Assembly: GCA_030647125.1 (NCBI GenBank)
Contig: JAUSKC010000013.1
Location: 2,249-66,248, forward strand
Direction: 5' to 3'
Source of the DNA: Nanobdellota archaeon
GTDB lineage: Archaea; Nanobdellota; Nanobdellia; Pacearchaeales; GW2011-AR1
DNA: 64,000 nt
How positions within the stretch are numbered: the first letter of the stretch is position 1; the number at the start of each line of letters is the position of its first letter. Below are positions 14,529-48,370 of the stretch, one piece after another. Made by a program: the position numbers and the translations under genes. A model generated the notes under the pieces. That model worked only from the letters and a program-made list of their open reading frames with translations. It had not been told where the DNA came from and ran no database searches.

Positions 14529-15844
14529 ATCTTTTCAAACATCTCTGCAATCTTCAGCATCTTTTCATCTTCAAACTTATTGCACATAATTTGCATACCT
14601 ACAGGAATTCCTTTAATTTTCCCAGAAGGAATAGAAACAGCGCAACATCCTGCAAGATTAGCCGGAATAGTTAAAGCATCATAACTATACATTTCTTCAA
14701 CTGATATTCTTTCCCCAATTTTGTGAGGAAGTCGCGGCACCGTCGGCAAGATAATGCAATCAACACTTTCAAACGCTTTAGAAAATTCATCTCCAATAAT
14801 TTTCTTTACTTTTAATGCTGTATTATAATATCTTCCTTTATATTCCGCTTTGCTAATTTCCGAACCTCCAAGAACACGGCGCAAAACTTCAGGTCCAGCA
14901 GCTTCTTCAATCTTTTTTCCATAACGTCTTCCATCAAACTTACGTGTCCCTGAAAAAAATTCAACATAAACCAAAGGATAATACGTCTCAACAGCTAATT
15001 CAATATTTTTAATCTTAACTTTTTTAATTTCAAATCCATACTTTTTCCTTGCATCTTCAACTTTCTCATCAAATAATTTTCTTATCTCTGGTTCAACATT
15101 CAACCCGCTAATATCAAGAACCCCTACTTTAATTTTCTTGTTGGGGTGGGTGGTCGGGGAGTGGACGGAGGGATTGTTATCCATTATAGAATCCTTTTCA
15201 TCTTTTCCTTTAATTACTGAAAGCATTAAACCAGCGTCGGAAACGTCCGATGCCAAAGGCCCAATTTGATCCAAAGACATTGATAAATCAATTAACCCAT
15301 AACGTGAAACACTTCCATAAGAAGGCTTAAGTCCGACGACGCCGCAATGAGATGCAGGATTTCTAATTGAGCCGCCAGTATCACTTCCCAAAGATATATC
15401 AACAAATCCAGCAGCAACGGCAGCAGCGCTTCCCGAAGATGAACCCCCAGGAATTTTTCCGATAGCAGACGGATTTTGCACCGGTCCAAAAGCGGACGTC
15501 TCTCCAGAACCTCCGCTTGCAAACTCATCCATATTCAGCATTCCAATAATAAGCCCATCTTCTTTTTTTATTTTAGAAACAACAAAAGCGTCATACGGAG
15601 CAACATAATCCTCAAGAACTTTTGATGCGCATGAAATCTTCATCCCATGAACATTTATATTTGCCTTTATTCCAATAATTTTTCCTGCAAGTTTTCCGCC
15701 AACACCTTTTTTTATTCTTTCATCAATTCGCTTCGCTTCTTCAATTAATTCCTTTTCAGAACGCAACTCTAAAAATATATTTAACTTTTTATTTTCTTTT
15801 TTAATGAGTTCAAGTTTTTGCTGTAAGTTTTGTAACGTGCTCAT
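14525..15844 (-). CDS. gatA: Glu/Asp-tRNA amidotransferase subunit A (amidase)
   Basis: Amidase signature GGSSSGSAAAVAAGFVDISLGSDTGGSIRNPAS. Confidence 0.9.
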   Translation of the reverse strand: MSTLQNLQQKLELIKKENKKLNIFLELRSEKELIEEAKRIDERIKKGVGGKLAGKIIGIKANINVHGMKISCASKVLEDYVAPYDAFVVSKIKKEDGLIIGMLNMDEFASGGSGETSAFGPVQNPSAIGKIPGGSSSGSAAAVAAGFVDISLGSDTGGSIRNPASHCGVVGLKPSYGSVSRYGLIDLSMSLDQIGPLASDVSDAGLMLSVIKGKDEKDSIMDNNPSVHSPTTHPNKKIKVGVLDISGLNVEPEIRKLFDEKVEDARKKYGFEIKKVKIKNIELAVETYYPLVYVEFFSGTRKFDGRRYGKKIEEAAGPEVLRRVLGGSEISKAEYKGRYYNTALKVKKIIGDEFSKAFESVDCIILPTVPRLPHKIGERISVEEMYSYDALTIPANLAGCCAVSIPSGKIKGIPVGMQIMCNKFEDEKMLKIAEMFEKI

Positions 15845-16245
15845 TTAATATCCCCCTTTTCTATTAAAAATTTTATATTGGGTGCAACTTTATATTTTCC
15901 TTTTTTAATTTCTCTTATATCAAGCCACTTAACTTCTTGCGTCGGAGGAATTGGTCTAACATCTTTTTTATTTAACAATTTAGCAAGATAATGTATAAGC
16001 AAGATAACCATCTTCTCTCCTGTTTGAGGATTTTTCCAAATAATCATTGGATTCAAAGGTCTAATTATTTCTATTTCAGCATTATTCTCTTCTTTAGTTT
16101 CTCTATGGCATGCCTCTTCTAAACTTTCAACCCCCTCTTCAACTGTTCCGCCAGGCAATTTATAAAAATCATCTTTATTATCTTTATTTACAAGTAACTT
16201 TCCCTCTTCTATTATCACAGGACCCGAAGCAATTATATATTTCAT
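15841..16245 (-). CDS. Nudix hydrolase
   Basis: Nudix box GGTVEEGVESLEEACHRETKEE. Confidence 0.75.
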   Translation of the reverse strand: MKYIIASGPVIIEEGKLLVNKDNKDDFYKLPGGTVEEGVESLEEACHRETKEENNAEIEIIRPLNPMIIWKNPQTGEKMVILLIHYLAKLLNKKDVRPIPPTQEVKWLDIREIKKGKYKVAPNIKFLIEKGDIK

Positions 16246-16475
16246 CTTACTCTTTTCTCAACCCCGTACAATCTTGTTAAATATTCTAATCCTATTTTAT
16301 ATTCTTCTGAACCAGAATCAAATCTTTTTTCTAATCTGGTTTTATGGTGTTTAAATCTAGCAACACGATCAGAACTTTCCCTCAAAAAATCCATTGAGGG
16401 GAAGAGTCTACTATCACAGAAATGATCTCTCAATCCTTCAGACATTCCCCTATAAAGCTCTTCTAATTCTACCAT
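16242..16475 (-). CDS. hypothetical protein
   Basis: 77-aa ORF translationally coupled between gatC-like and Nudix genes. Confidence 0.25.
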   Translation of the reverse strand: MVELEELYRGMSEGLRDHFCDSRLFPSMDFLRESSDRVARFKHHKTRLEKRFDSGSEEYKIGLEYLTRLYGVEKRVR

Positions 16476-16732
16476 CCTTTCTTCTCCGCAATTATAAAGT
16501 CCTTATTTTTATTAGGCGCATTTGAAAACATAATTTCTCTGTCAATAGGAACTTTTTCAGCCGAACCTTCTTTTCTCTCGCCGTTTCCTCGTTCAATCAT
16601 AGGTTCTTCTACTCTATCAAGGCCTAATTTCTCCAATTTTGAAGAAAAAGAATCCATAATCTTCTTTGATTCTTTTTTTATCTGTTCTTTTTCAGGTTCA
16701 GAAACCTTCTTCCATAAAAACCCTTCAGTCAT
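16469..16732 (-). CDS. gatC: probable Glu/Asp-tRNA amidotransferase subunit C
   Basis: C-terminal ...ERKEGSAEKVPIDREIMFSNAPNKNKDFIIAEK resembles the GatC R.D...REE.L.NAP...F.VP tail; same operon direction as gatA. Confidence 0.5.
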   Translation of the reverse strand: MTEGFLWKKVSEPEKEQIKKESKKIMDSFSSKLEKLGLDRVEEPMIERGNGERKEGSAEKVPIDREIMFSNAPNKNKDFIIAEKKGW

Positions 16733-16734
16733 AA

Positions 16735-17628
16735 TTAACCAATAAACCTCATACTTTTAATTTTTCCTATTCTATCATCAACTTCAACAATCGCCGCCTT
16801 TCCTTTTTCTCCATCTCCTGGATTGATAATAGGAACTCCATATAATTTTTTCATCCCTCTGTATTCATGCATATGTCCGCAAAAAACAGAAACAGGTTTA
16901 TATTTCTTAATCGCTTCTGAATAAAATCTGACACCAGCACTCTCTCTATCCATTGGATTATTTTTATCTTTAATTATATCAAAAATTCCTTTCGGTGGAT
17001 AATGAAAAACAAAAATCTTAGGCAGTTTTTTATCTGTCTTCTTTAGCAAACTAAAAAACTTTGTCCTCATTTTAAGATGTCTTTTATACCTTTTCATAAT
17101 ATCTTCACGTTCACTTTTAAATGTCTTTTTCTTAAAAAACGCATCAATATCCATATACCCGCCAAACCCAATAATATCAAAACCACCAAATTCTTTTTTA
17201 CCATAATTAATTATATTAACATTTTTCAATTTCTTCAGAAACAAGGCGTTCTTTTCTTTTCTTTTCTCTTTAAAATAAGGGGTGCTGTACCAATCATCAT
17301 CTGTATTGCCAAACACAATATAAGTTGGCTTATTTAACGAATCCAAAGTTTTCAAAACTTTCTTTGTCATTTCAAAATCTTTTTTTAATAAATATTTTAA
17401 CTTCTTCTTTCCAAAGAACTCTTCTGGAGAAATTCTTTCATCCCCTCGCTTTAATCGCCTGAACAAATCTAGGATATACGGCCGCCATTCGTTAATTCCC
17501 CCATAATCTCCAACACCAACAATTAAATCAAAATCTTCTTTTTCCAACTTACTTTTCAGCTTCGAAGGAAAAACTCCTTGAAAATCTCCACAAACCAAAA
17601 TCCTAACCATAAATAAAAAAGTTATCAC
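16735..17628 (-). CDS. calcineurin-like metallophosphoesterase
   Basis: ILVCGDFQG, GDYGG, GNTDD, HMHEY motifs. Confidence 0.65.
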   Translation of the reverse strand: MITFLFMVRILVCGDFQGVFPSKLKSKLEKEDFDLIVGVGDYGGINEWRPYILDLFRRLKRGDERISPEEFFGKKKLKYLLKKDFEMTKKVLKTLDSLNKPTYIVFGNTDDDWYSTPYFKEKRKEKNALFLKKLKNVNIINYGKKEFGGFDIIGFGGYMDIDAFFKKKTFKSEREDIMKRYKRHLKMRTKFFSLLKKTDKKLPKIFVFHYPPKGIFDIIKDKNNPMDRESAGVRFYSEAIKKYKPVSVFCGHMHEYRGMKKLYGVPIINPGDGEKGKAAIVEVDDRIGKIKSMRFIG

Positions 17629-17700
17629 AAACTTAAAAACCTAACTACTATCTAAAAACATTAAAAATTATTTAAAAAATAAAAATAAAAATAAATTTAT

Positions 17701-17802
17701 TTACCAATCTGCTTCGTCATCGCTTGAGTCATCTTCATCATCGTCATCTTCATCTTCATCTTCTGACTCATCAATCTTTTTGTCTTCTTCACTCTTAGGC
17801 AT
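17701..17802 (-). CDS. small highly acidic peptide (33 aa)
   Basis: ATG after TAGGAG; MPKSEEDKKIDESEDEDEDDDDEDDSSDDEADW; below ORF-track cutoff. Confidence 0.3.
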   Translation of the reverse strand: MPKSEEDKKIDESEDEDEDDDDEDDSSDDEADW

Positions 17803-17891
17803 TTTACAACTCCTATTTTAATTAAAACCTACTAATCCAAATTGTTTTTAAACGTTTCTATAATCTTTTCAATAACAAAAACATTTAAGAA

Positions 17892-19280
17892 CTATTTCTT
17901 CGAACTCTTGGGCTTTGAATTCTTTTTCACAATCTCTATATGCGTTTCTTTCAGTTGAATCGGCTCAACTTCCGAAGGTGAACCGTCCATTGGATTTTGC
18001 GCGGCCTTATTTTTTGGAAATGCAATTACTTCTCTTATATCATTAAATCCTAACATCAATGCAACCAATCTGTCAAAACCTAAACCCATTCCGCCGTGAA
18101 CAGGCCCACCATATTCGTAAGCGTCAAGCAAAAAACCAAATTTCTTTCGTGCGGACTCTTTGCTCATCCCTATAATTTTCATAACTTTCTCTTGTAATTC
18201 AGGATTGTTAATTCGAATGCTTCCCGAACCAAGTTCAGTTCCATTAAGTACAAGGTCAAACAAATCCCCCAAAACTTTCCCTGGTTCTTTTTCTAAATAT
18301 TTTATATGTTCTTTTTTAGGCGAAGTGAAAATGTGATGTTCCGGCTCCCATTTTTTTTCATCTTTATTATAAGAAAACAATGGAAAATCAACAACCCAGC
18401 AAAATGCAAATTCTTTTGGATTGCTTTTGTCTTTTCTCAAGTCTGGCTTATCCGTTCCGTATTTTTTCTTTGCTTCTTCATGAGTTAGAATTTTAAAATC
18501 ACTAAGTTGAATTCCTAAAATCTTTTTAAAAATATGTTTATACAATCCCTCAACAAATCCTAAAATATCTTTCTGTTCAACAAAACTCATTTCCAAATCC
18601 ATTTGCGTATGTTCTGGCTGTCTGTCTGCCCTCAAATCTTCATCTCGCAAACAGCGCGCGAACTGATAATATTTGTCAAACCCCGCAATCATTAAAATTT
18701 GTTTATACAACTGCGGCGATTGAGGCAATGCATAAAACTTTCCTTCATTAACACGAGAAGGAACAATATAATCACGTGCGCCTTCCGGCGTCGGCTTAAC
18801 AAGCAAAGGCGTTTCAATTTCCAAGAAATCGTTCTCAATAAAATACTCTCTCGCTGCTTGAGCGACTTTAGCTCTGAATGCCAAATTTCTTTGCATCTCC
18901 GGCCTTCTTAAATCCAAGAAACGATATTTCATTCTTATATCATCCCCTGCAACTTCATTCTCATTAATTTTTATAGGTGGAACTTTCGCCTCGTTGATAA
19001 TCTCAATTTTCTCGGCAAAAACTTCAATTTCTCCCGTATGCAATTCCTTATTTTCAGTCCCTGGCTTTCTATTCTTAACTTCCCCAGAAACAGAAACAAC
19101 AAATTCATTCCTTAATCCGTGCTCACCCTTGAAAACAATCTGCATTTTCCCATACCTGTCACGCAAATCAATAAAACTAATTTTTCCATGCTCGCGAATA
19201 GTATCAACCCATCCACAAAGTTTAACTTTCTTCCCAACATCTTTTCGTGTCAGTTCTCCACAAGTATGCGTCCTTAACAT
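17892..19280 (-). CDS. aspS: aspartyl-tRNA synthetase (archaeal type)
   Basis: N-terminal OB anticodon-binding domain, class II motifs (FRDE..., GGMGLGFDRLVALM); ends with a genuine TAG stop. Confidence 0.9.
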   Translation of the reverse strand: MLRTHTCGELTRKDVGKKVKLCGWVDTIREHGKISFIDLRDRYGKMQIVFKGEHGLRNEFVVSVSGEVKNRKPGTENKELHTGEIEVFAEKIEIINEAKVPPIKINENEVAGDDIRMKYRFLDLRRPEMQRNLAFRAKVAQAAREYFIENDFLEIETPLLVKPTPEGARDYIVPSRVNEGKFYALPQSPQLYKQILMIAGFDKYYQFARCLRDEDLRADRQPEHTQMDLEMSFVEQKDILGFVEGLYKHIFKKILGIQLSDFKILTHEEAKKKYGTDKPDLRKDKSNPKEFAFCWVVDFPLFSYNKDEKKWEPEHHIFTSPKKEHIKYLEKEPGKVLGDLFDLVLNGTELGSGSIRINNPELQEKVMKIIGMSKESARKKFGFLLDAYEYGGPVHGGMGLGFDRLVALMLGFNDIREVIAFPKNKAAQNPMDGSPSEVEPIQLKETHIEIVKKNSKPKSSKK

Positions 19281-19613
19281 AATAAATCAATAAACAAGTA
19301 ATTTATAAATTTAATTAGAATCTAAAGAAGAATCAAGCCCTTTCTGTTTCATCCTTTGTTCCCTCATTAACTTTCGCCCGGCCTCAATATATCCCCTTGG
19401 AGTATAAAAAATAATTGTCTCAGTTTCCTGCCGTGGCAAACTTTCTCTTTCACCCTGTTTAACATTACTATAATCCTTTCTAAAAAGCCGCACAAATCTA
19501 CTTAAATAATCCATAAAAACAATAATCATTTATTATTCTTAAAGATTTATATTTATTTTAAAATAGATAATAAAAAACATAAAAAGATTTAAACATAAAA
19601 GTTCTACAAAGTT

Positions 19614-20006
19614 ATGGTATATAGTTTGGAACTTCTTTCTACAGCAGTAAATGAAGGTTATATGCCAGATATAGAGGGGTTAGCTAAAAAAATTGATGAA
19701 CCAAAATTATCTATAGTGGGTTTAGATGAAGTATTAAAATTCATAGCAAATTATGAACCAATGTGGCATGAGGTGGGCAATCAAGATCTTGAAAGACAAT
19801 TAGAAACATTCAAAGGAAAACAACCATTATATTTAGATAGTGAACATACTCAAAGAAATCCTAATTTAAATCATTCGGATTATTTGTTTGTGTTTAAAGA
19901 GTTCATGAAAACATGGGCAGCACGTAAAAACAAAGGATCTCCAGAAGAGAATTGGTATCAAATGCAGGAAGAATTGGCAGATCTAATTTTTGAGAGTTAT
20001 AGATAA
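19614..20006 (+). CDS. hypothetical protein
   Basis: 130-aa ORF in its own intergenic slot. Confidence 0.3.
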   Translation: MVYSLELLSTAVNEGYMPDIEGLAKKIDEPKLSIVGLDEVLKFIANYEPMWHEVGNQDLERQLETFKGKQPLYLDSEHTQRNPNLNHSDYLFVFKEFMKTWAARKNKGSPEENWYQMQEELADLIFESYR

Positions 20007-20010
20007 ATAA

Positions 20011-21519
20011 TTATTTCAATAACTTTTCAATAATCTGCATCGCATCTTTCCCAGAAATCTTGCCTTTAAACTCTTTCATCACCAAACCCATATAAGCATT
20101 AGCATTCAATCCTGGCTTGCTCTTTATTATCTTATGAATTTTCTCTTCAACATATTCAGTATTAATCTTCTAAATTTTTAATGCATCCTCCAAACTTTCA
20201 CCAGAAACAATTTTCTCAAAAACATTCCGAACATCGCTTTCCTCAAGTTTCCCTTCTCTAACTTTCTCCAAGACATCAGAAATAACTTCTTTACCAAATT
20301 TCTTTTCAACATCGAACTCGTTTAAATTTTCCCTCACAGCAATTTCCGTCGGAAGAACAAGCAAAACCTTGGCAACAAAATTTGCATTAGGATAAATCTT
20401 CATCAACTCTCCAAACTCTTTAACTTGATTTCTCTTGAAAAGCAATTTAATCATTTCCTCATTAAGTCCTTCCCGTCTTAAGTCCTCTTCAATTTCCACT
20501 TTTAATTTAGGCAACGTCTTCTTTGCTTCATTAATCAAATCCCTATGTATCTTTAACAAAGGTAAATCCGTTTCAGGATACATACGAGCAGCCCCGGGCA
20601 TTGGCCTTAAAAATTCACTCGTTCCGTCTGGCAAAGCGCGTCGCACTTCAGAAACAACTTTCATTTTTCCAAGAATTAATCTTTCTTGTCTTTCAATTTC
20701 TTTGTTAACAGTAGTAATCATCATTGAAGGATCTTGAAAACCTTTTATTTCAATTCGTGCGCCTTTTGAAATAGAAACATTAACATCTTGTCTTATAGTT
20801 CCAATTCCTCTTTTAACTTTACACGAACGTAAAATCTCTCCAATTTTTAGCGCAGCTTCACGAACTTGCGCAGCACTTTTCAAATCCGGCGCGGTAGCAA
20901 TTTCAACTAAAGGAATTCCCAATCTATCTAACCTATAACGCACTTCTTTCTCATTTTCAAAGATCTTTCGCGCAGAGTCCTCTTCCAAACAAATTGTGTC
21001 AATTCTAACTTTTCCTTCAGACGTTTCAATATAACCATCACGAGCAATTAAAACCGTCCTTTGAAATCCGGAAGTGTTAGAACCATCAACAACTGTCTTT
21101 CTCATAATTTGTGTCAATGTCTGTATCTCACAATTCAAAAGCAAAGCAATTTGCAACGCAATTTTGAGCGCCTCTTCATTAATTTGATACGGCGGCTCTT
21201 CATCTAATTCAACCAGCGACGTCGTTCCAGAATGAACTTCATAAACAAACTCTTTATCTAAAGAAACTTGATAGAGTGCAGCTTCATCAACTTCACCAGA
21301 TTCTCCAGCAACGGCATGAAGTTTTCTCCTTACAAGATAATTCGGCTCATCACTTCTCAAAATGGAAGGCGCACGAGAAAATAATTTATGAGTGTCAAGT
21401 TGCTGATGAATTTCTAGCCCTGCTTTAAAACCGAGATTTTTATAATCGAGGTTTTTTGCTGAAAAATCTTTTGATTTTTCTTGCTTAAAACCTAATTTAG
21501 TATAATCTTCTTTATCCAT
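20011..21519 (-). CDS. gatE: Glu-tRNA(Gln) amidotransferase subunit E with in-frame TAG at 20170..20172 (C-terminal tail continues to 20011)
   Basis: N-terminal LGFKAGLEIHQQLDTHKLF matches GatE; after ...EDALKI-TAG the same frame continues KINTEYVEEKIHKIIKSKPGLNANAYMGLVMKEFKGKISGKDAMQIIEKLLK, i.e. the conserved GatB/YqeY-type tail. Confidence 0.8.
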
Positions 21520-21550
21520 AATAAAAAGAAAATAAAAGAATTAATAAAAG

Positions 21551-22129
21551 TTACTTATGAGCATCTAACCCTAAATAAGTAACCAATCCGCCATTCTCTC
21601 CTCTAAAAAACTGTACATCATCAAAAAGTAAATGCATAGTAGATAATCCTAATCCTTGATTTTCAGGATAAGGTCGGGATTTATCAGAAAATTTATAAAA
21701 ACTTGTAATTAAAGGATAAGTCGATTGTCTAAACCTTAATATATACGGAACAAAGTCCTGATTAATTACTCCTCCTTCATCTCCAATAAGAAATAATGCA
21801 GAATCTTCAGAAATTTTGGAAGCAAGGAGAATTTTCTTAGTTTTATCTTTGTGATTTCCATGTTGGTATGCATTCCTTACAGCTTCATGAACTCCTGCAA
21901 GAATCTTTCGTGGAAATCTCTGATCTCTAAGCCCATCTCCAAATTGATAACTATGTGAATATAATCCTTTTTCAGAAGAGGGATAAAAAGATTTATCCTC
22001 AAAATCAGGTGAGATAACTATAGGTGGAATTTTAAGTTGTGATAAAATAACATCTTTAGTAAACATTTCTCTAACTAAAGAATTCCTAAAATCTAAATTC
22101 AAAAGTTCATTATCATGAATATGTCTCAT
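21551..22129 (-). CDS. stand-alone GHKL/HATPase_c-like ATP-binding protein
   Basis: N-box HEAVRNAYQHGN, G1 IGDEGGV, G2 NQGLGLSTM in order. Confidence 0.5.
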   Translation of the reverse strand: MRHIHDNELLNLDFRNSLVREMFTKDVILSQLKIPPIVISPDFEDKSFYPSSEKGLYSHSYQFGDGLRDQRFPRKILAGVHEAVRNAYQHGNHKDKTKKILLASKISEDSALFLIGDEGGVINQDFVPYILRFRQSTYPLITSFYKFSDKSRPYPENQGLGLSTMHLLFDDVQFFRGENGGLVTYLGLDAHK

Positions 22130-22218
22130 AATAAAATAACTATTTCACATCTTAAAAACCTTTCTAAAGTAACCCCTTATAAGTTACAACCAAACACGAA
22201 GAATCAAAGAATCAAAAA

Positions 22219-23502
22219 TCACCCTTCAAGCATTTTATTAAACTCATGAGCAAAGTTATGAAGCATTTTCTCTTTTACAACTTCTTTGCTTTTTGCCCAC
22301 TCACTATGCCCTAAAATCCATCCTAATTTTACCAAGGCCGCTTCACTCAACATGTCTTCAAGGTAAATTATTCCTGTCTCCAAAAGTTCTCTTCCATTAC
22401 TATATACTAAAGGATCAACTCGGCCGTTAATGCACTGTGATGTCGCACAAACCACAATTTTTTTCTGAACTTCTTTTAACTTTTTAGTCCATCCATGTCT
22501 TGCTCTTGATGTAGGCGCGTGACCAAGACCAGACATTTCAAGAACTAAGCCTTTGTAACCATTTTTAACATAATAATCTAGGACGTTGGCCTCTTGTCCA
22601 GGATAAATTTTCAAAAGCCCAACTTTCTCTTCAAATTTATTATCAACCTTAACTTTGCTATTATTTCTCCTATTAAAATTACTCATAATTTCAATTCCAT
22701 CTTGAGTAACTTTAGCAAATGGTTTCCCGTTAACAACTTTAAAGGCGTCCCTTCTTGAAGTATGCAACTTTCTTACTTTAGTTCCAGGCATAGCATAACA
22801 AAATTCATCACTTTCATTTGCATGTCCAACAAGCATAACTTCAGCAATCTCAGAAGTTGCAGCAACCGCAGCGCATACTAAATTTAAATTAGCGTCGCTG
22901 CTAGCACGATCAATTGACCTTTGTGAATAAGTTAATACAACTGGCTTGTTTAACTTCCCTAAGAAAAAACTCAAGGCCGCGGAAGTATAATGCAAAAAGT
23001 CAGTCCCGTGAGTAATAATAACTCCTTGAATATTTGTATCATTTAATAATTCAGAAACAACTTTAGCAATTTTTTGCCAGTCCTTGTAATCCATGTCTTC
23101 TGAGGCCTTCATAAACGGTCGCTCCAAACGAAGAACGTTCACTTTATCAAAGATTCCTGGATAATATTTAAATAAACTTTCAGGTGTGTCAAGCCAATCA
23201 ACTCCTCCTTTCTTCGGATTTAAGCGAGCTGCAATTGTTCCTCCAGTAATTACCATAGCAATATTTGGCTTTCCACTTGACTTTTTCAATTCAACTTTTT
23301 CTTCAGCATCGCGCGCTTTTTCAACAAGTTTAATCTCCAAAATTTCTTTTCTCGGAAAGCCAATATTATACCCATTTCCAAGCTTAAGCAAAACAATATT
23401 CTTGTCAGACTCGGGCGATTCAATCAAAGTCCCTTCATAAATTTCTTTAACGAAGTGAATTTCAACTTCGTCCCCTGCCTTAATTCCAGAATCAATTTTC
23501 AT
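22219..23502 (-). CDS. gatD: Glu-tRNA(Gln) amidotransferase subunit D (asparaginase-like)
   Basis: Asparaginase-type motifs VITGGTIA, VIITHGTD; start moved to internal MKIDSGIKAGDEV (cat at 23500..23502) since the upstream 12 codons are hydrophobic junk. Confidence 0.85.
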   Translation of the reverse strand: MKIDSGIKAGDEVEIHFVKEIYEGTLIESPESDKNIVLLKLGNGYNIGFPRKEILEIKLVEKARDAEEKVELKKSSGKPNIAMVITGGTIAARLNPKKGGVDWLDTPESLFKYYPGIFDKVNVLRLERPFMKASEDMDYKDWQKIAKVVSELLNDTNIQGVIITHGTDFLHYTSAALSFFLGKLNKPVVLTYSQRSIDRASSDANLNLVCAAVAATSEIAEVMLVGHANESDEFCYAMPGTKVRKLHTSRRDAFKVVNGKPFAKVTQDGIEIMSNFNRRNNSKVKVDNKFEEKVGLLKIYPGQEANVLDYYVKNGYKGLVLEMSGLGHAPTSRARHGWTKKLKEVQKKIVVCATSQCINGRVDPLVYSNGRELLETGIIYLEDMLSEAALVKLGWILGHSEWAKSKEVVKEKMLHNFAHEFNKMLEG

Positions 23503-23642
23503 ATCCAAAACAAAAATTCCAACTATAAAAAGTTTCATCTTTAATGTTTCTTCAATATTTCTTCAATGCCAAATCAGAATAGTTACTCCGTGTAAGTAAC
23601 TACAATAGAAACATTTATAAATGCCTAAAACGGGAAATAAAC

Positions 23643-23987
23643 ATGACAAACATAGGAAAAGGAATCACAGGTGGATTAGTATTAGCTTTGCTATCAGTTG
23701 GAACATTCTCTTTAGTAAAAGGAACTGAAATGGCTTCAGAAAGACAAGCAAGATCAGAATTAAGAGAAGTAATTGACACTCCAGAGGAAAGGGTAAGATT
23801 AGCAACAATGTTGGAAAATCAACCAGAAACATGGTATGTCTTAAACAAATTAAAAAAACAATATCCTTCTCTAAAAAATTCTGACCAGAATAGAATAGTT
23901 TACGAATTGGACCAATTAAGAAATTATGATTTAGGAAAAATGAATCAAGATGACTACAATGTTCATGTAGCTGCAAGAGATTTTTAA
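23643..23987 (+). CDS. hypothetical protein with N-terminal signal/anchor
   Basis: 114-aa ORF, N-terminal hydrophobic segment. Confidence 0.3.
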   Translation: MTNIGKGITGGLVLALLSVGTFSLVKGTEMASERQARSELREVIDTPEERVRLATMLENQPETWYVLNKLKKQYPSLKNSDQNRIVYELDQLRNYDLGKMNQDDYNVHVAARDF

Positions 23988-24028
23988 TCCCTAAAAACCT
24001 TAATAAATCCTTTTTATCTTTCTAATTA

Positions 24029-25384
24029 ATGGTTAAGATTGGTTTGGAAATTCACGGTTATCTTGAAACAAAAGAAAAATTATTCTGTTCGTGTGTTGCC
24101 GAGCACGGAGCAAAATTCTCAAAACCAAATACAAACATATGTCCAATATGTACCGGACAACCCGGAAGCAAACCAATGTTACCAAACGCGGCAGCAATAG
24201 ACAAAGCAATTCAAATTGCATTAATTTTAAACTGCAAAATAAATGAAAAATTAATCTGGCAAAGAAAACATTACTCTTGGCCTGATCTGCCAAAAGGTTA
24301 TCAAAATACTTTATCCGGTCCTCATGCATTCCCTATAGGTATTAACGGAAAATTTGAAGGAATAAAAATTACTGAAGTTCATCTTGAAGAAGACCCTGCT
24401 GCTTGGAATCCAAAAACTGGAGAAATCGATTACAATCGTTCCGGCTCTCCATTAATAGAAATTGTTACAGAACCTGACTTCACATCCTCATCACAAGTTG
24501 TTGAATGGTTGATAACTCTAAAATCAACTTTGTCTTACATAAAAGCTTTGGACCGTTCTTCCGGACTAAAAGCAGATGTAAACGTTTCCATAAGCGGCGG
24601 AGCAAGAGTTGAAATAAAGAATGTAAATTCTATTTCAAACATAAAAACCGCTATAGAGCATGAACTCGCGCGTCAAGAACGTTCTCTTCCAAAAAAACAA
24701 GAAACACGCGCATTTAATGAGTTAGACAACACTACGACCCACATGCGTTTTAAAGAAGAAGCAGAGGATTATCGTTTCATTTCAGATCCCGACTTGCCTA
24801 TAATAAAAATAGATTCTAAAACAATAAAAAGAATAAAAGAAAATCTTCCAGAGACACCAAAAGAAAAATTAAACAAATTAATAAAAAAATACAAGATACC
24901 AAAGGACTCAACAGAGGTTTTGACAAAGAATTTGGACATGGTTGAATTATTTGAAATCGTCTCCTCCCGTATTTCACCACAACTGGCCTTAAATTGGATA
25001 ACCATAGAACTTCAAAGGGTTTTAAATTACAATAAGAAACTTTTGGATGAAGTTGAAATTATCCCCGAACATATTATAGAACTTTTAGAGTTAGTTCAAA
25101 CTAAGAAAATAACTGAATTAAAAGCAAAAGAAATCTTGAATAAGTTCGTCCCAAAATCCTTTTCACCACTTTCAGAAGCAACAAAAAACGCTACAATTTC
25201 AGATGAGAAAGAAATAGAAAAGATTGCATTAAAAGTAATTTCCGAAAACAAAAAAGCTGTTAATGATTACAAAGCAGGCGAAGAAAAAGCAATTAATTTC
25301 TTAATAGGCCAAGTCATGCGCATCTCAAACAAGCGCGCGGACTTTGCAACAGCAAAAAGAATTCTAGAAAAGAACTTAAAATAA
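24029..25384 (+). CDS. gatB: Asp/Glu-tRNA amidotransferase subunit B
   Basis: IGLEIHGYLETKEKLFCSC start; complete C-terminal helical tail ...INFLIGQVMRISNKRADFATAKRILEKNLK. Confidence 0.85.
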   Translation: MVKIGLEIHGYLETKEKLFCSCVAEHGAKFSKPNTNICPICTGQPGSKPMLPNAAAIDKAIQIALILNCKINEKLIWQRKHYSWPDLPKGYQNTLSGPHAFPIGINGKFEGIKITEVHLEEDPAAWNPKTGEIDYNRSGSPLIEIVTEPDFTSSSQVVEWLITLKSTLSYIKALDRSSGLKADVNVSISGGARVEIKNVNSISNIKTAIEHELARQERSLPKKQETRAFNELDNTTTHMRFKEEAEDYRFISDPDLPIIKIDSKTIKRIKENLPETPKEKLNKLIKKYKIPKDSTEVLTKNLDMVELFEIVSSRISPQLALNWITIELQRVLNYNKKLLDEVEIIPEHIIELLELVQTKKITELKAKEILNKFVPKSFSPLSEATKNATISDEKEIEKIALKVISENKKAVNDYKAGEEKAINFLIGQVMRISNKRADFATAKRILEKNLK

Positions 25385-30393: not shown

Positions 30394-31437
30394 TCAAATC
30401 CCTTTTTCAATTCTCTCTCTAAATAATTCTAAATCCTCCAAGCGCACTTTCGCCCCGACGGCATCTTCATGCCCTCCCCCAGTTGCGCCTTCTAATCCAT
30501 CAATCGCTTTAAGAATAACCTTCTTAACGTTTTTCCCTCGAACAGAAATATTTGCTTTAATTCCTGTAACATAAACAACAATAACTATTTTTTCTGGAAA
30601 CAAGTACATTAATTCATTTGACAAATCAGAACTTATGCTCAAATCCCCTCCATACTGGAAAAACAAAATCTTATTTTCTTTATTGTAAACCTCTTTTGCT
30701 TTTTCAATTAATTTTCTATAACGCACCTCAATTTGGTCGAACTTGCTATGCATAGAATAATTTTTATTATTTGATTCTAGAACATCTCCCGGACTTCGCG
30801 CTTTCATAAGATATTTTATCATTGAAACAACATTTGTCGTGCTGTCTTTCAAGCCAAAATTAAAAATTCGCGCAACTCTTCCAATTTCAGTGGTGTAAAA
30901 AACTTCAAAAGCATTTTTTGTCTTAACTCCCAATTCAGGGAAGTTCTTTAAAAAATCCTTGTAAAAGGAAGGCATATAACTGTCAGAAATGCACCCTACA
31001 ACCGCAATCCACAAGTCCTCTTTTCTTGTTTTTTTAACAACTTGCCAGCACAAAGCCGTCGTCGGTTCAGAACTCTTTTTCTTGTTCAAAACTGGATTAT
31101 AATAATGCACAAATTCAGGAACAACAGAATCAACATCATGATGATCAATCCACACAACAGGGATATTAACTTTTTCAACTTCATCAAAAAATTCCTTTGA
31201 CACAAGCGGCTTATCAAGAATAAAAATATAATCAGCTTTTAATTCCACAACTCTCCTAAAATAATCCTTAGACATTTCCGGGAACGAACGAACTGGAACT
31301 CCCTTGCCTCTTCCTAAAAACCTTTGCAGCAGCAAAAAAGCGCTTAGTCCATCCGCATCATTGTCAAAAAAGAAAACTGGATTTTGCGCTTTGGCCAAAT
31401 GCCCGTTAATTTCATCAACTTGTTTTTTCGTTAACAT
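30394..31437 (-). CDS. stand-alone DHH-DHHA1 phosphoesterase (NrnA/Pde2-like)
   Basis: DHH motifs FFFDNDADGLSA and WIDHHDV; DHHA1 GGGH motif ATGGGHEDAVGAKV. Confidence 0.75.
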   Translation of the reverse strand: MLTKKQVDEINGHLAKAQNPVFFFDNDADGLSAFLLLQRFLGRGKGVPVRSFPEMSKDYFRRVVELKADYIFILDKPLVSKEFFDEVEKVNIPVVWIDHHDVDSVVPEFVHYYNPVLNKKKSSEPTTALCWQVVKKTRKEDLWIAVVGCISDSYMPSFYKDFLKNFPELGVKTKNAFEVFYTTEIGRVARIFNFGLKDSTTNVVSMIKYLMKARSPGDVLESNNKNYSMHSKFDQIEVRYRKLIEKAKEVYNKENKILFFQYGGDLSISSDLSNELMYLFPEKIVIVVYVTGIKANISVRGKNVKKVILKAIDGLEGATGGGHEDAVGAKVRLEDLELFRERIEKGI

Positions 31438-32540
31438 TATATCTTCTTACCAACCATAATCTTTTCTTTCAAGCTGTTAATCTCTTTATTGAAAAATTCA
31501 ACCATCTCTTCGCTTCCAAAGATTTCCAAAAGCTCGTCGTTATCAGCTGCTAGAGTTCTGTCAAGCGTTTTGAACTTTGAAATTAAAGCGGTTGTATATC
31601 GCTCAAGCAAATTTGTTCTCCCCAAGATTCTCAAGCCCGAAGGACTGACTGATTCGTCATGCAGCTCTTCAAAAAGCATTCGTGAAATATTATTACTCTC
31701 GAGCAGAAAATCAAAATTAAATTTATCTAAAGTATTCGCCTTATTATTCCATTCATTTCCAAAATAATCTTTTAAAAGAATTTCCTCCTCTTTTCCTAAA
31801 TTTCCTGTCAATTCTTTAAGTCGCATACTTACAATCATCCCTTCCTTTCCAAGTTCAATCAAATATCTTTTTACAATTTCAGAAATTCTTTTTATAATTT
31901 CAAGTCGCTGCAAAACATTCGAAACATCTTCTATAGTTACCAACCCATTAATTTCAAGAATGTTAAAATTAGACATTAAATCATTAAAAGTCTCCCTTTG
32001 TTTTTCCAGAATTTGCAACGTCTCAGCCGCTCTTCTTAAAATTTCAGAGCTGTGATCAAGTTCATATTTCATATCACTATAATACAAAGAAATTTTATTT
32101 TTTCTTTCAGAGACAGCAATTACAATTGTTTTTGCTTTCTTCGCGGTCCTTTCAGCCGCCTTATGCCGCGTTCCCGTCTCTCTCGTCGGAATGTCAACTC
32201 CAGGGAAAAGCAAGGTATTTCCAAATAAAATTCTTTTTCCGTCATTGCTTAAAATTATTGCCCCATCCATCTTGCACAATTCAACCAACTTTTGCGCGCT
32301 GAATTTTGAATTTATTTTAAAACCCCCATCTGCAAGATCAAGAACATTTCCATTGTCAAAGACAATCAGCGCACCCATTCTTGCTCTTAACAAATCATCC
32401 AACCCCGTCCTTAATGAAGTTCCTGGCGCGAACATCTTAAGCACGTCGACAAAGTCCTTTTCTTTTTCAAAATTCTTAAGAGGATTCTCTGTAACAACAA
32501 TCTCCTGCACCTCTTTAATATCAGAATTATTTTCTTCCAT
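31437..32540 (-). CDS. disA: DisA-like diadenylate cyclase (DAC domain + C-terminal helical region)
   Basis: DAC motifs DGAIILSNDG and GTRHKAAERTA with TIVIAVSE; 1-nt overlap with the DHH gene. Confidence 0.7.
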   Translation of the reverse strand: MEENNSDIKEVQEIVVTENPLKNFEKEKDFVDVLKMFAPGTSLRTGLDDLLRARMGALIVFDNGNVLDLADGGFKINSKFSAQKLVELCKMDGAIILSNDGKRILFGNTLLFPGVDIPTRETGTRHKAAERTAKKAKTIVIAVSERKNKISLYYSDMKYELDHSSEILRRAAETLQILEKQRETFNDLMSNFNILEINGLVTIEDVSNVLQRLEIIKRISEIVKRYLIELGKEGMIVSMRLKELTGNLGKEEEILLKDYFGNEWNNKANTLDKFNFDFLLESNNISRMLFEELHDESVSPSGLRILGRTNLLERYTTALISKFKTLDRTLAADNDELLEIFGSEEMVEFFNKEINSLKEKIMVGKKI

Positions 32541-40009: not shown

Positions 40010-43000
40010 TCATTCCAAATAAATCCCCGGCTTGCCCGGCTTAACTTTTTTGCTTTTTCCGTCCGGATCATATTTATCTTTATCATTAACAGCATAAACT
40101 TTTATATCAAGACCTGTTCGTTTTTTCAACTCATCAACGCTATCAACAAAATTCTTCTTTTCGTTAGGCAAAACATAAACCCAACATTTTGAAACTTCTT
40201 TTCCTTCCCGTTCTTTTATAATTTTAACAACGTGATTTATATCTTCAACAAGCTTTGCAACATCTTGCTCTTGCTTTTCCAAACTCTCATTAATCTTCGC
40301 TTCTTCAACTTTAGGCCATTCAGATGAAGAAATCAGACCAACACCTCCTATTTTCTCCCACATTTCTTCAGCTATGTGCGGGCAAAAAAGAGACAAAAGT
40401 TTCAAACCCTTTTCCAAAACTAATCTATCAGTTTCCAGAGGCAAAGAATTAAACAATTCCCTGACTTTTATAATTGCTAAGTTATATTTGAAATTTTCAA
40501 TCTGGTTCGTCATTTCTTTAATAATCTTATTCAATTTGCTTTCAATTTTAGCGTCTGATTTCTTAACAATCTTAACATTTTGAAAATAATCATAAACTTT
40601 ATTCAAGAATTTGAAGCTTCCAACAAGAACATTCTCATCCCAAAGAGTATCATTTTCAGGAGAAGCCAAACTCATTAAAGCCAAACGCAAAGAGTCCGCG
40701 CCATACTTCTTAATAATATCCAAAGGATTAATCACATTACCTAACGACTTTGACATCTTCTGCCCATCAGCGCCATGCAAAAGCCCTTGATTAAACAATT
40801 TAATAAACGGCTCATCAATTTCAGGAATCAAATCTAAATCCCTCAAGGCCTTTGTAAAAAAACGCGCGTAAATCAAATGCATCGTCGCATGTTCCGCGCC
40901 TCCAATATATTGATCAACAGGCATCCAGTATTTTACTTTATCAATTTCAAAAGGTTTTTTTGAATTTTCCGAGTCCAGATATCTCAAATAATACCAACTC
41001 GAATCAAAGAAAGTATCCATCGTGTCCGTCTCTCGTTTGGCTTTTCCATTACATGAAGGACATTTTACATTAATCCATTTTTCATTTGTTTTCAAAGGAT
41101 TTCCTTTTCCAAATTTAACTTTTTCAGGAAGAACAATAGGCAAGTCACTTTCTTTAATAGGAATAATTCCACACTTATCACAATAAACAACTGGAATAGG
41201 AGTTCCCCAATAACGCTGACGTGAAACCAACCAATCTCTTAATTTAAAATTAACAACCTTGCGTCCTAATTTTTTCTTTATTAAAAATTTAGTAATTTCT
41301 TCTTTAGCTTTTTCACTTTCCACTTCATCAAATTCATCCGAATTAATTAACCATCCTTCTCCAGTATAAGCTTTCGACTCTTTTGTAAAATCAATTTCTC
41401 CTTCCCTTGGCTGAATCACTGCCTTAATTTCAATATTGTATTTTCTTGCAAACAAATAATCCCTTTGGTCGTGAGCAGGCACAGCCATAACCATTCCACT
41501 CCCATAATCAGCGACGACAAAATTGCCGGCATAAACCGGAACTTTTTTATTATTTACAGGGTTTACAGCATAACTTCCTGTAAAGACACCTTCTTTGTCA
41601 AGTTCTTCAAGTTGTTTTTCAGAAACGCCTTTTAATTTTTTCAAGAATTTTTCTACTTCTTTCTTTTGTTTGTTAGAAACTAATTCCATAAGTCGCGGAT
41701 GCTGCGCTGAAACAACCATAAAAGTCACTCCGTAAATAGTATCTGGCCTTGTCGTAAATATAGACCACTTTTCATTTCCAATAATTTCATTTAAAAGTTC
41801 AGGAAATTCTCCTGTTCCCATATCATATATAGTATAATGCCCATGATTTTTTAATTCAATAATTTCGCCGCCCAAAGAATCATGAAAGATCTTAACGCTT
41901 TTCTTACCATCGGCTTCCTCATTATTTGCAGTAAAAATAATTACTTCACCAACTCTATCTTTAATTCCCAAGTCAATATTATAATCATAAAAATCTTTTG
42001 GAGCATTACCAGATTTAGCAATTTTCCAAGGTGCGACTAAAATTAGTTTTTTAATTTTCTTTTTAGTATCACCAAGCCATCTTACTAAAAATGCACAGCC
42101 GCAACTATGTCCAATTAAAACAGAATTCTCATCTATTTTATTTTTTTCGAATTCTTTCTTCCAATTATAATAATCAGCTTTCCAGGCCTCGGGCATTAAA
42201 GGAGAAAAAACCTTAATCTTTCTTTCCTCAAGTTTCTTTTTAATCCAAGGAATCCAATGTTTATCATAAGTTCTTTTTTCTTGAGAATACTCCGCTTTTT
42301 CAGCAGACGGACAACCATGAACAATCACAACATTAGAAAGTTTATTTGAATTTTCAATCTCAAACAAAATCTCCGTCCCTTCCGAACGTCCAATCCAATT
42401 CTTCTGCATCAACTTAATTCTTTCAGGCCAATATAACTTGTCAACCTTATCCAAAAGCTCGTCAGCATAATTTGTCGTTTTGATAAACCATTGTTCAAGT
42501 TGCTTGATTTCAACAGGTGTTTCAGGATGTCTCCAGCAACAACCACCATGAACTTGCTCATTCGCTAAAACCGTCTCACATTTACCACACCAATTAACCG
42601 GCGACTTTTTTCTATAAATTAAACCTTTTTCATAAAGTTTAAGAAAAAAATATTGATTCCATTTATAATATTCCGGCTTTGACGTCACAATCATTTTACT
42701 CCAATCGTAACTCAATCCTAACTTATGCTGTTGATTTACAAAATTTTTTATAGAATTTTCAGTGTACTTTCTAGGATGTTCCCCTGCTTTTATCGCCGCA
42801 TTTTCAGCAGGCAATCCAAAAGCATCGTAACCCATTGGATAAAGAACATTCATCCCTTGCATTCTCTTGAAGCGCGCATAAATATCCCCTATAGTATAAT
42901 TCAAAGCATGGCCCATATGCAGTCCAGCTGCCGATGGATACGGAAACATTTCAAGAACATAAAACTTCTTTTTCTTTTTCGTGCCTGCGGCGTCCGGGGA

Positions 43001-43072
43001 TACTTCAAAGACCTTCTTTTTTTCCCACTTACTCTGCCATTTTGTTTCTATCTTTTTAAAATCATAAACCAT
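40010..43072 (-). CDS. leuS: leucyl-tRNA synthetase (archaeal type) with inserted RBBP9/YdeN-like serine-hydrolase domain
   Basis: HMGH, KMSKS-type (KMSKSLGN), CP1 editing FTTRPDTIYGVTFMV; a ~180-aa alpha/beta-hydrolase module (VVIVHGCPSA...HWIPWIKKKLEE...IGHSCGCAF...LVAPW...HGHY) sits between GRSEGTEI and FTTRPDT. Confidence 0.9.
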   Translation of the reverse strand: MVYDFKKIETKWQSKWEKKKVFEVSPDAAGTKKKKKFYVLEMFPYPSAAGLHMGHALNYTIGDIYARFKRMQGMNVLYPMGYDAFGLPAENAAIKAGEHPRKYTENSIKNFVNQQHKLGLSYDWSKMIVTSKPEYYKWNQYFFLKLYEKGLIYRKKSPVNWCGKCETVLANEQVHGGCCWRHPETPVEIKQLEQWFIKTTNYADELLDKVDKLYWPERIKLMQKNWIGRSEGTEILFEIENSNKLSNVVIVHGCPSAEKAEYSQEKRTYDKHWIPWIKKKLEERKIKVFSPLMPEAWKADYYNWKKEFEKNKIDENSVLIGHSCGCAFLVRWLGDTKKKIKKLILVAPWKIAKSGNAPKDFYDYNIDLGIKDRVGEVIIFTANNEEADGKKSVKIFHDSLGGEIIELKNHGHYTIYDMGTGEFPELLNEIIGNEKWSIFTTRPDTIYGVTFMVVSAQHPRLMELVSNKQKKEVEKFLKKLKGVSEKQLEELDKEGVFTGSYAVNPVNNKKVPVYAGNFVVADYGSGMVMAVPAHDQRDYLFARKYNIEIKAVIQPREGEIDFTKESKAYTGEGWLINSDEFDEVESEKAKEEITKFLIKKKLGRKVVNFKLRDWLVSRQRYWGTPIPVVYCDKCGIIPIKESDLPIVLPEKVKFGKGNPLKTNEKWINVKCPSCNGKAKRETDTMDTFFDSSWYYLRYLDSENSKKPFEIDKVKYWMPVDQYIGGAEHATMHLIYARFFTKALRDLDLIPEIDEPFIKLFNQGLLHGADGQKMSKSLGNVINPLDIIKKYGADSLRLALMSLASPENDTLWDENVLVGSFKFLNKVYDYFQNVKIVKKSDAKIESKLNKIIKEMTNQIENFKYNLAIIKVRELFNSLPLETDRLVLEKGLKLLSLFCPHIAEEMWEKIGGVGLISSSEWPKVEEAKINESLEKQEQDVAKLVEDINHVVKIIKEREGKEVSKCWVYVLPNEKKNFVDSVDELKKRTGLDIKVYAVNDKDKYDPDGKSKKVKPGKPGIYLE

Positions 43073-46483: not shown

Positions 46484-48370
46484 TTAAACCAATTTCCCAG
46501 AATCTTCAAACTCCTTTTCTCCATCAATTAACTGTCTTAACACATTTTTCAAATCTTTTATCTTTACTCTTATTTGTTTTGTAGTATCACGCTCGCGAAT
46601 AGTAACATCTTGTTGTTTTGTTGAATCCTCGTCGATAGTTATGCAATATGGAGTCCCAGCCTCATCATTTCGAGCGTATCTCCTTCCAATGCTACCACTT
46701 TTATCATAAATAACATTCCACTCTTTTCTCAAATCTTCCAAGATTTCGCGGCAAATATCTTCATATTCATCTTTTTTTATTATAGGAAATATTGCGGCCT
46801 TAACTGGTGCCAACCTTGGATTTAATTTTAAAATAACATTCTGCCTTTTCTCGTCGGGAGAATAAGCGCTAAACATAAAAACCAAAAACGCCCTTTCAAA
46901 TCCCAATGATGGTTCACATACTACTTGAGGCAAAATCTTCTTACCGGTTTTCTCGTCCAGAATGTGTAAATCCTTTCCAGAGAATTTTTCATGTTGAGAC
47001 AAATCAAAATTCCCCCTATCTGCAAAGCCTAAAAGTTCTTTCCACCCGAAAGGAAATTCATATTCTAAATCCCATGTGTCTTGAGAATAATGCGCTTTCT
47101 CTTCCGAAACATGCTGCCTTATTCTGAATTTATCTTTATTTGCGCCAAGAGAAATAAACCACAAATATTCATTTGCTATCCAATAAGCATGCCATTTGTT
47201 TTTTATAACATGTGATTCAAGCGCCTCTTTTAATTTCATTTTCCTCGCGTCCTCATTCCCCTTTTGCATCTCCGAAGAATAAATCATAATTTCCACATCA
47301 GGAATTTTATAAGGGCATTCATCTTCAGGATTTACAAAATACTCAATTTCCATTTGTTCAAATTCCCTACATCTAAATAAAAAATCTCTCGGGGCAATTT
47401 CATTTCTAAAAGCCTTTCCTTGCTGCGCAATTCCACACGGAAGTTTCAATCGTGCATTGTCAAAAACAAGTTTGAAATCAGCAAATATCAACTGCGCAGT
47501 TTCCGGCCTCAAATATGCCTTTACAGAATCTTCAACAACAGGGCCAACTTGCGTCGTGAACATCGGATTAAATTCTCCTTTAATTTCATAATTAGAATTA
47601 TTTTCATATTTCTTCACTTCGTATTTATCAACTTTAAACTTCTCCTTTGTTTTTTTATTTACAACTGCGACATCAACAAAACTTGCAACATGCCCACTCG
47701 CTTCCCAAACTTTCGGGTTCGTCACAATCGCTCCGTCAATTCCCACAATATCATCCCGTTGATAAACATGATATTTCCACCATTCATTTTTCAAGTTCTT
47801 TTTCATTTCAGCCCCAAGAACTCCAAAATCCCAAAATCCAGACAGACCCCCATAAATCTCCCCAGAAGGATAAACAAATCCTTTTCTTTTACAAAATGCA
47901 GCCATTTCATCAACTGATATTTCAGAACTATTTTTTACCTTGTTATTTCCTATAAGATTATTTCTTGGTTTATAATTTATAAGAAATTCCTTACCTAAAT
48001 CTGTAAGAAAGTAACCACCATCTCTATTATCTTTTTTAATATAATTTTTATCAGCCAACTTATTTAATATTAAACTAACTTCAGATTTATCGAGAGATAA
48101 TTCTTTACCAATAAATTCTGGATAACCTATATGATCATCACACATATAAACTATCTTATATGCAATTTCCTCATCGATTATAATATCTTTATCTTCTATT
48201 TTTGTTTTCTTGTTAACCATATTTTCAAATTTCCGTTTGGCTTCTTCCTTGTTTTTGCCCAGGTACGCGACGTTTTTAGATTTAACTTTTTCCCCTTCTC
48301 TTACTGACTCGCGCATATAATAATATTCCCCGCCGTTGATTTTCTTCCGGACTATGTAAGCCATAAACAA
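46484..48370 (-). CDS. glyS: glycyl-tRNA synthetase (archaeal/eukaryotic class II) with ~140-aa N-terminal extension
   Basis: RKGFVYPSGEIYGGLSGFWDFGVLGAEMKKN core; N-terminal MFMAYIVRKKINGGEYYYMRES...wHTH-like segment precedes it in frame. Confidence 0.9.
   Translation of the reverse strand: MFMAYIVRKKINGGEYYYMRESVREGEKVKSKNVAYLGKNKEEAKRKFENMVNKKTKIEDKDIIIDEEIAYKIVYMCDDHIGYPEFIGKELSLDKSEVSLILNKLADKNYIKKDNRDGGYFLTDLGKEFLINYKPRNNLIGNNKVKNSSEISVDEMAAFCKRKGFVYPSGEIYGGLSGFWDFGVLGAEMKKNLKNEWWKYHVYQRDDIVGIDGAIVTNPKVWEASGHVASFVDVAVVNKKTKEKFKVDKYEVKKYENNSNYEIKGEFNPMFTTQVGPVVEDSVKAYLRPETAQLIFADFKLVFDNARLKLPCGIAQQGKAFRNEIAPRDFLFRCREFEQMEIEYFVNPEDECPYKIPDVEIMIYSSEMQKGNEDARKMKLKEALESHVIKNKWHAYWIANEYLWFISLGANKDKFRIRQHVSEEKAHYSQDTWDLEYEFPFGWKELLGFADRGNFDLSQHEKFSGKDLHILDEKTGKKILPQVVCEPSLGFERAFLVFMFSAYSPDEKRQNVILKLNPRLAPVKAAIFPIIKKDEYEDICREILEDLRKEWNVIYDKSGSIGRRYARNDEAGTPYCITIDEDSTKQQDVTIRERDTTKQIRVKIKDLKNVLRQLIDGEKEFEDSGKLV

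Follow-up and report, generated by a model that had tools for sequence, protein, structure and literature searches.

The gene for the E subunit of the Glu-tRNA(Gln) amidotransferase, gatE, is interrupted at codon 450 by a single in-frame TAG in the stretch of DNA analysed here (64,000 nucleotides; hereafter the window), and we think it very probable that this TAG is an unselected and very recent one-base change without a role in translation. An artefact of consensus, sequencing or assembly has, in our view, an even chance of being the source of this change, and a real young nonsense allele is a serious possibility at rather less than even chances; how the total divides between these two is something that we infer. 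The sequence-only reading of the window had left three explanations side by side, an error, a recent nonsense mutation and programmed readthrough. The first two both stand, and the third is disfavoured because the stop is not conserved, is accompanied by no RNA structure, lies in an ordinary context, and has for company in the window neither a suppressor tRNA nor another split gene.

The gatE reading frame and its tail

The gene opens with an ATG at 21519 on the minus strand and runs for 449 codons (20173..21519) covering the cradle (catalytic) and helical domains, ending in ...GESLEDALKI just before the TAG (20172..20170). After the TAG the same frame stays open for 52 codons (20014..20169, minus strand), KINTEYVEEKIHKIIKSKPGLNANAYMGLVMKEFKGKISGKDAMQIIEKLLK, with one peptide inside the tail reading IIKSKPGLNANAYMGLVMK, up to a TAA at 20013..20011, the ancestral gatE stop, whose position is the same in orthologs. 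In all this, coordinates and sequence alike, the gene is as it had first been described. An open continuation of this length is somewhat unlikely by chance (P ~0.02 from the base composition, which is 34% G+C; among all stop-to-stop segments of the window, 4.4% reach this length), but it is homology, not the openness of the frame, that we take as decisive in assigning the tail to the C-terminus of GatE.

The sequence-only reading had recognised in the piece beyond the TAG the conserved GatB/YqeY-type tail, and profile searches bear this out. Taken alone, the 52 residues match Pfam GatB_Yqey (E 3.5e-4, profile positions 108-148 of 148) and YqeY (E 2.9e-3, profile positions 91-140 of 143), and with the C-terminal end of P0001, the closest ortholog, they align without gaps, 45 of 52 residues being identical (87%, E 9e-29). 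The GatB of the window (24029..25384), to whose tail this piece had been likened, does carry a complete GatB_Yqey tail according to Pfam.

The profile matches identify the gene as a member of the GatE family, in the short form typical of its lineage. The cradle is found by PF02934 (GatB_N; E 1.1e-55, residues 32-329), and when the two pieces are joined into a protein of 502 aa the score is 497.7 bits against the NCBIfam model NF003107, above its equivalog cut-off of 456, and 443 bits against TIGR00134, above its cut-off of 319.6. The protein is 92% identical to P0001, and its partner gatD (22219..23538, minus strand; Pfam GatD_N, Asparaginase and Asparaginase_C) is encoded close by, which makes this a GatDE locus; one family trait that fails here is the uninterrupted reading frame. 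The NCBIfam GatE match falls in two stretches. Canonical GatE has an AspRS-like insertion domain (about residues 261-386 of 2d6f_C), whereas no such domain was found in the window GatE, whose match to 2d6f_C skips just these residues. A short GatE of about 475-500 aa, without the ~125-aa AspRS-like insertion domain, is common to the best 120 homologs (P0001 to P0120), which come from Woesearchaeota, Pacearchaeota and Nanoarchaeota; a literature search on the short GatE of Woesearchaeota returned nothing useful.

Where the stop falls in the protein can be judged from an AlphaFold model of P0001, computed with a 50-sequence alignment (mean pLDDT 86, pTM 0.77). In this model residue 449, which aligns to the TAG, sits in a loop (447-452) after the last helix of the helical domain (442-446), and the tail forms a bundle of three helices (453-466, 472-483 and 489-500). 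The pLDDT falls to about 72 around the loop, and the linker with the TAG is flexible and poorly conserved; loop and tail match the flexible inter-domain loop and the YqeY-C-like tail known from GatB. In the crystal structure of GatDE with tRNA(Gln) (2D6F) the tail, a binding module for the tRNA D-loop, is found at that loop, and the GatB tail is needed for tRNA binding (PMC2811023). Since the stop is placed in the loop before the three-helix tail, termination there would remove exactly and only the tRNA-contacting tail, and since this tail matters for tRNA binding, a long-standing truncation would be selected against.

Ancestral codon and age of the stop

As read from the alignments of its relatives, the ancestral codon at the TAG site is GAG (Glu). 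In a DNA alignment the sister species, represented by four assemblies, has TTT GAG AAG opposite the ATT TAG AAG of the window; these assemblies, L001 and L016 (two replicates from well H51), L002 (GCA_964367155) and L005 (H32-bin101_1), are Hainich groundwater Nanoarchaeota from the aquifer wells H51 and H32. At the protein level, of the 22 homologs that are closest, 19 have Glu in the column of the TAG and the other three have Asp or Lys. As Glu is the family consensus and GAG the codon of the sister species, one G>T transversion at 20172 accounts for the TAG; indeed, the differing base is a T at 20172 (minus strand) where the sister species has a G. The single AAG/GAG-to-TAG change proposed from the sequence can thus be narrowed to GAG to TAG.

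A stop at codon 450 occurs in none of the 22 aligned homologs and in none of the four sister assemblies. It had been asked whether orthologs might naturally end at this position, and they do not: the best 120 database homologs continue through the site, every one of them as an uninterrupted protein (474-549 aa). The sister locus has the same gene order, with 88% nucleotide identity and 92% identity of the GatE protein, and no closer relative came to light, a protein-guided scan of GTDB genomes having returned only the sister species at 93% identity and then relatives at 64% or less. An exact 44-mer across the TAG, with N at the variable base, is absent from the genome and metagenome contig collections, and the only match of a degenerate 30-mer was a further replicate of the sister species from Hainich. 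Neither the exact 449-aa GatE product nor the partial products guessed by k-mer overlap logic (residues 235-449 and 362-449) are on record. A protein search with residues 368-502 gave no near-identical fragment, a weak result since the search also missed P0001 itself.

The tail is under purifying selection. Compared with L001, it shows 17 synonymous and 10 non-synonymous differences over its 52 codons, that is, a dN/dS of 0.067 against 0.108 in the 448 upstream codons, and the same comparison reveals no indel and no second stop. The seven amino-acid differences in the tail all fall in variable columns, and all the residues invariant in the family are kept (E458, K468, P469, G470, L471, A475, Y476, M477, G478, M481, G486, G490 and I497). 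Neutrality of the tail over the whole of the window branch would predict about 29 non-synonymous differences in place of the 10 seen (P = 3e-5); for neutrality over half of that branch the expectation is about 19 (P = 0.02). With the constraint on the tail intact, either the stop arose long after the sister species had split off, or translation of the tail continues. A decayed pseudogene, which was also considered, is contradicted by the same dN/dS, the lack of indels and further stops, and the rejection of neutrality over the whole branch.

TAG usage, assembly and genomic setting

TAG is used normally as a terminator in the window. The 60 long ORFs end in TAA (39), TGA (12) or TAG (9), and for seven of the eight ORFs other than gatE that end in TAG the next stop comes within 0-19 codons, the eighth having an extension of 73 codons unlike protein sequence. 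In ProRS the TAG comes exactly where the ProRS-C_1 profile ends. AspRS (19280..17892), on which the sequence-only reading had based its view that TAG is a real stop elsewhere, justifies that view, with a TAG followed by a nonsense extension of 19 codons and a length of 462 aa equal to that of its ortholog.

That reading had also proposed looking for a pyrrolysine or suppressor tRNA and for other in-frame TAGs genome-wide, and within the 64-kb window both searches came back empty. Of the eight tRNAs that the window encodes (two for Arg and one each for Asn, Met, Cys, Leu, Val and Thr) none has a CUA anticodon, and no Pyl gene (pylS or pylBCD) is present among the 26 window proteins scanned against Pfam. 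When all six frames were scanned for pairs of long segments that share a frame and are parted by a single stop, gatE proved to be the only same-frame split gene in 64 kb, which makes the stop an isolated event rather than part of a genome-wide pattern; nor does the 64-kb window hold other broken genes that would point to an error-prone assembly. As for signals near the stop, the 141 nt around and after it have a minimum free energy of -13 kcal/mol against a mean of -17.9 for shuffled sequences (z = +1.7), so that the region folds less well than shuffled sequence, and its TAG-A context is common to three genuine TAG terminators.

The assembly around the base itself can be compared with an independent assembly, the Logan contigs of run SRR13727527, two of which are 100% identical to the window: L003 corresponds to 16469..20153 and L004 to 20789..24415. 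The 635 nt between them (20154..20788), which hold the TAG, are not covered, and the literature yielded nothing useful on this run. L003 begins at the first base of a 37-nt stretch that is common with the sister species (20153..20117), and the base just before its start, 20154, differs between the window and the sister species, as would be expected at a branch of a de Bruijn graph if the sample also contained a related strain. More generally, the breaks at the L003 start and the L004 end lie at the edge of or inside stretches of at least 31 nt that the window and the sister species have in common. The SRR13727527 sample, to judge from this, also contains a related strain or species that makes the assembly graph branch inside gatE, and the gatE region may have been assembled from a mixed population. 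Such signs make a mis-threaded or minor allele more probable a priori without in themselves indicating which base is correct.

With genes for TFIIB, deoxyhypusine synthase and FtsZ the window is archaeal, the public genomes nearest to it are MAGs from groundwater that bear the labels Nanoarchaeota, Woesearchaeota or Pacearchaeota, and the neighbourhood of gatE is rich in translation genes (gatD, gatB, gatA, AspRS, ProRS, AlaRS, LeuRS and GlyRS). Three of the synthetases deserve a comment of their own. LeuRS (40013..43072, minus strand) is of bacterial type, with 1020 aa and 905 bits against TIGR00396, and has a Ser_hydrolase/alpha-beta-hydrolase domain (PF06821, residues 270-426, E 1.2e-12) inserted between the first part of its catalytic core (11-227) and its editing domain (433-597), which is unusual for an aminoacyl-tRNA synthetase. 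AspRS (minus strand) is likewise of bacterial type, and as its profile match falls in two stretches the bacterial insertion domain is missing; in GlyRS (46484..48370, minus strand, 628 aa) about 150 aa at the N-terminus form an extension without profile match.

Several loci differ from their syntenic counterparts in L001. About 450 nt that abut the gatE stop (19559..20009) are missing from the sister locus; they contain, on the strand opposite to gatE, an ORF of 130 aa (19614..20006, plus strand) that is also present in L003 and has no match in Pfam, NCBIfam or PHROG. The spacer between gatD and gatE encodes a 192-aa HATPase_c_2 protein resembling anti-sigma-factor kinases (21551..22129, minus strand), and that of the sister (L001 3909..5962) a 257-aa Fic-domain protein and a 351-aa ORF of unknown function. 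Near gatA, 15841..16475 (minus strand) holds an ORF of 134 aa, with what looks by eye like a Nudix-box motif, and another of 77 aa; the counterpart in L001 (10561..11514) is a 317-aa homolog of UMPH-1 (pyrimidine 5'-nucleotidase). The gap at 15841..16735 was considered as a frameshift and rejected, the gene content being different in the sister species.

Further away, 54391..60510 (minus strand) encodes a protein of 2039 aa whose sole Pfam match is a lytic transglycosylase SLT domain (residues 1843-1885, E 2.5e-6) and which may be a giant protein of the surface, or one attacking cell walls, as in episymbiotic archaea; a 626-aa ORF without match comes after it. At 30394..32540 (minus strand) a DisA-like diadenylate cyclase (DAC and DisA-linker, 367 aa) adjoins a DHH/DHHA1 phosphoesterase (347 aa), possibly a pair for the synthesis and degradation of cyclic-di-AMP in a reduced archaeon.

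Competing explanations and known systems

The scenario that we prefer supposes that the functional gatE product of this lineage is a protein of about 502 aa, made of cradle, helical domain and YqeY-type tail, and that a G to T change at 20172 (minus strand) turned a GAG (Glu) of the linker into TAG in an otherwise intact and selectively maintained gene. If the change is an artefact, the T would be present in the consensus only, either through a sequencing or assembly error or through a mis-threaded path in a mixed-strain assembly graph. G>T belongs to the class of artefacts caused by oxidative damage, and it is this error class, together with the essential and single-copy nature of gatE and the signs of a mixed-strain graph, that leads us to favour an artefact. 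If the change is instead a young nonsense allele of the assembled population, ribosomes would stop at the TAG and produce a GatE of 449 aa without the tail that contacts the tRNA D-loop, and such a protein would probably be crippled in tRNA binding.

Leaky or programmed readthrough, in which the TAG would be real and fixed and a near-cognate tRNA would give some full-length GatE beside the tail-less form, seems to us improbable. The tail is indeed conserved and in frame, with a low dN/dS, and true readthrough would leave the same signature of selection; moreover the linker that holds the stop is flexible and would accept almost any residue, and Belinky et al. (PMC7918605) argue that in-frame stops accompanied by a low dN/dS are no rarity and that readthrough may occur at them. 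However, the low dN/dS, over a nucleotide divergence of about 12%, is equally expected from a very young stop, the stop is missing in the sister species (in all four assemblies) and in the best 120 homologs, no stimulatory RNA structure accompanies it, and its context is that of genuine TAG terminators. Readthrough could serve to lower or tune GatDE activity and, if true, it would be a natural case of a DPANN archaeon making or tuning an essential tRNA-amidotransferase subunit in this way. Some archaea decode TAG as pyrrolysine, and a reassigned or dual-coded TAG, read as pyrrolysine or another amino acid by a dedicated tRNA(CUA), can be envisaged here too; we find this hardly credible. All that speaks for it is that this in-frame TAG sits in a conserved essential gene, and against it the residue aligned in homologs is Glu, not Lys, eight other ORFs of the window use TAG to end where their C-terminus is expected, the eight tRNAs and 26 proteins of the window include no tRNA(CUA) and no Pyl gene, and 64 kb hold no second in-frame TAG. 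Within the window, the TAG of gatE behaves on every point that can be tested as neither programmed readthrough nor codon reassignment would require.

A fixed and tolerated truncation, or a split gene, appears very improbable as well, a little less so than reassignment. A tail-less GatE would then suffice, or the tail would be made separately, or GatCAB would take over, and it may be said in favour of such a scenario that the stop is exactly at a domain boundary, so that judging from the model the 449-aa product would fold, that GatA and GatB are co-encoded, and that GatE has already lost its AspRS-like insertion domain in this lineage. But a tail that is dispensable or untranslated would not show a dN/dS of 0.07, no tail-less homolog exists among the best 120 matches, and in GatB the binding of tRNA depends on the tail (PMC2811023). 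The idea that the tail is expressed separately was rejected for want of a usable start before its first helix: there is no ATG or GTG between the TAG and that helix, and the frame offers its first TTG at tail codon 21 and its first ATG at tail codon 27, both past the conserved KPGL motif. A GGAGG just upstream was considered as a start signal for the tail and rejected too, as it is part of the conserved LEDA codons and the adjacent ATG is out of frame.

For annotation, the two pieces should be joined, or the gene flagged for its internal stop or for a possible sequencing error, and it should not be recorded as a GatE of 449 aa. The case is a clean example of how a young one-base lesion can be told from recoding, by three signs: an ortholog codon one step away from the stop, an intact dN/dS downstream, and neighbours that stop at TAG. 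Only if the TAG were fixed would the case be of modest interest, as a candidate example of natural readthrough or of GatDE without its tail in a reduced archaeon.

Compared with the archaeal GatE of known structure (2D6F, 1ZQ1), the window gene has the same GatB_N cradle, helical domain and YqeY-like tail, and differs by one TAG in the linker ahead of the tail. With programmed UAG decoding, as in methanogen pyrrolysine proteins or viral readthrough signals, it shares an in-frame UAG followed by conserved coding sequence; here, however, the UAG is not conserved, neighbouring genes terminate with UAG, the aligned residue is Glu, the window contains no tRNA(CUA) or Pyl gene, and no structure lies downstream. 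The interruption belongs to a well-known class, that of isolated nonsense substitutions or assembly errors. In-frame stops of prokaryotic genomes are common, mostly short-lived and SNP-like (Belinky et al. 2021, PMC7918605), and the gatE case resembles them in that a conserved gene carries one nonsense substitution, the dN/dS is far under 1 before and after it, and close relatives lack the stop. It differs in coming from an assembly of an uncultured organism, which makes an error of the consensus no less likely than a real allele.
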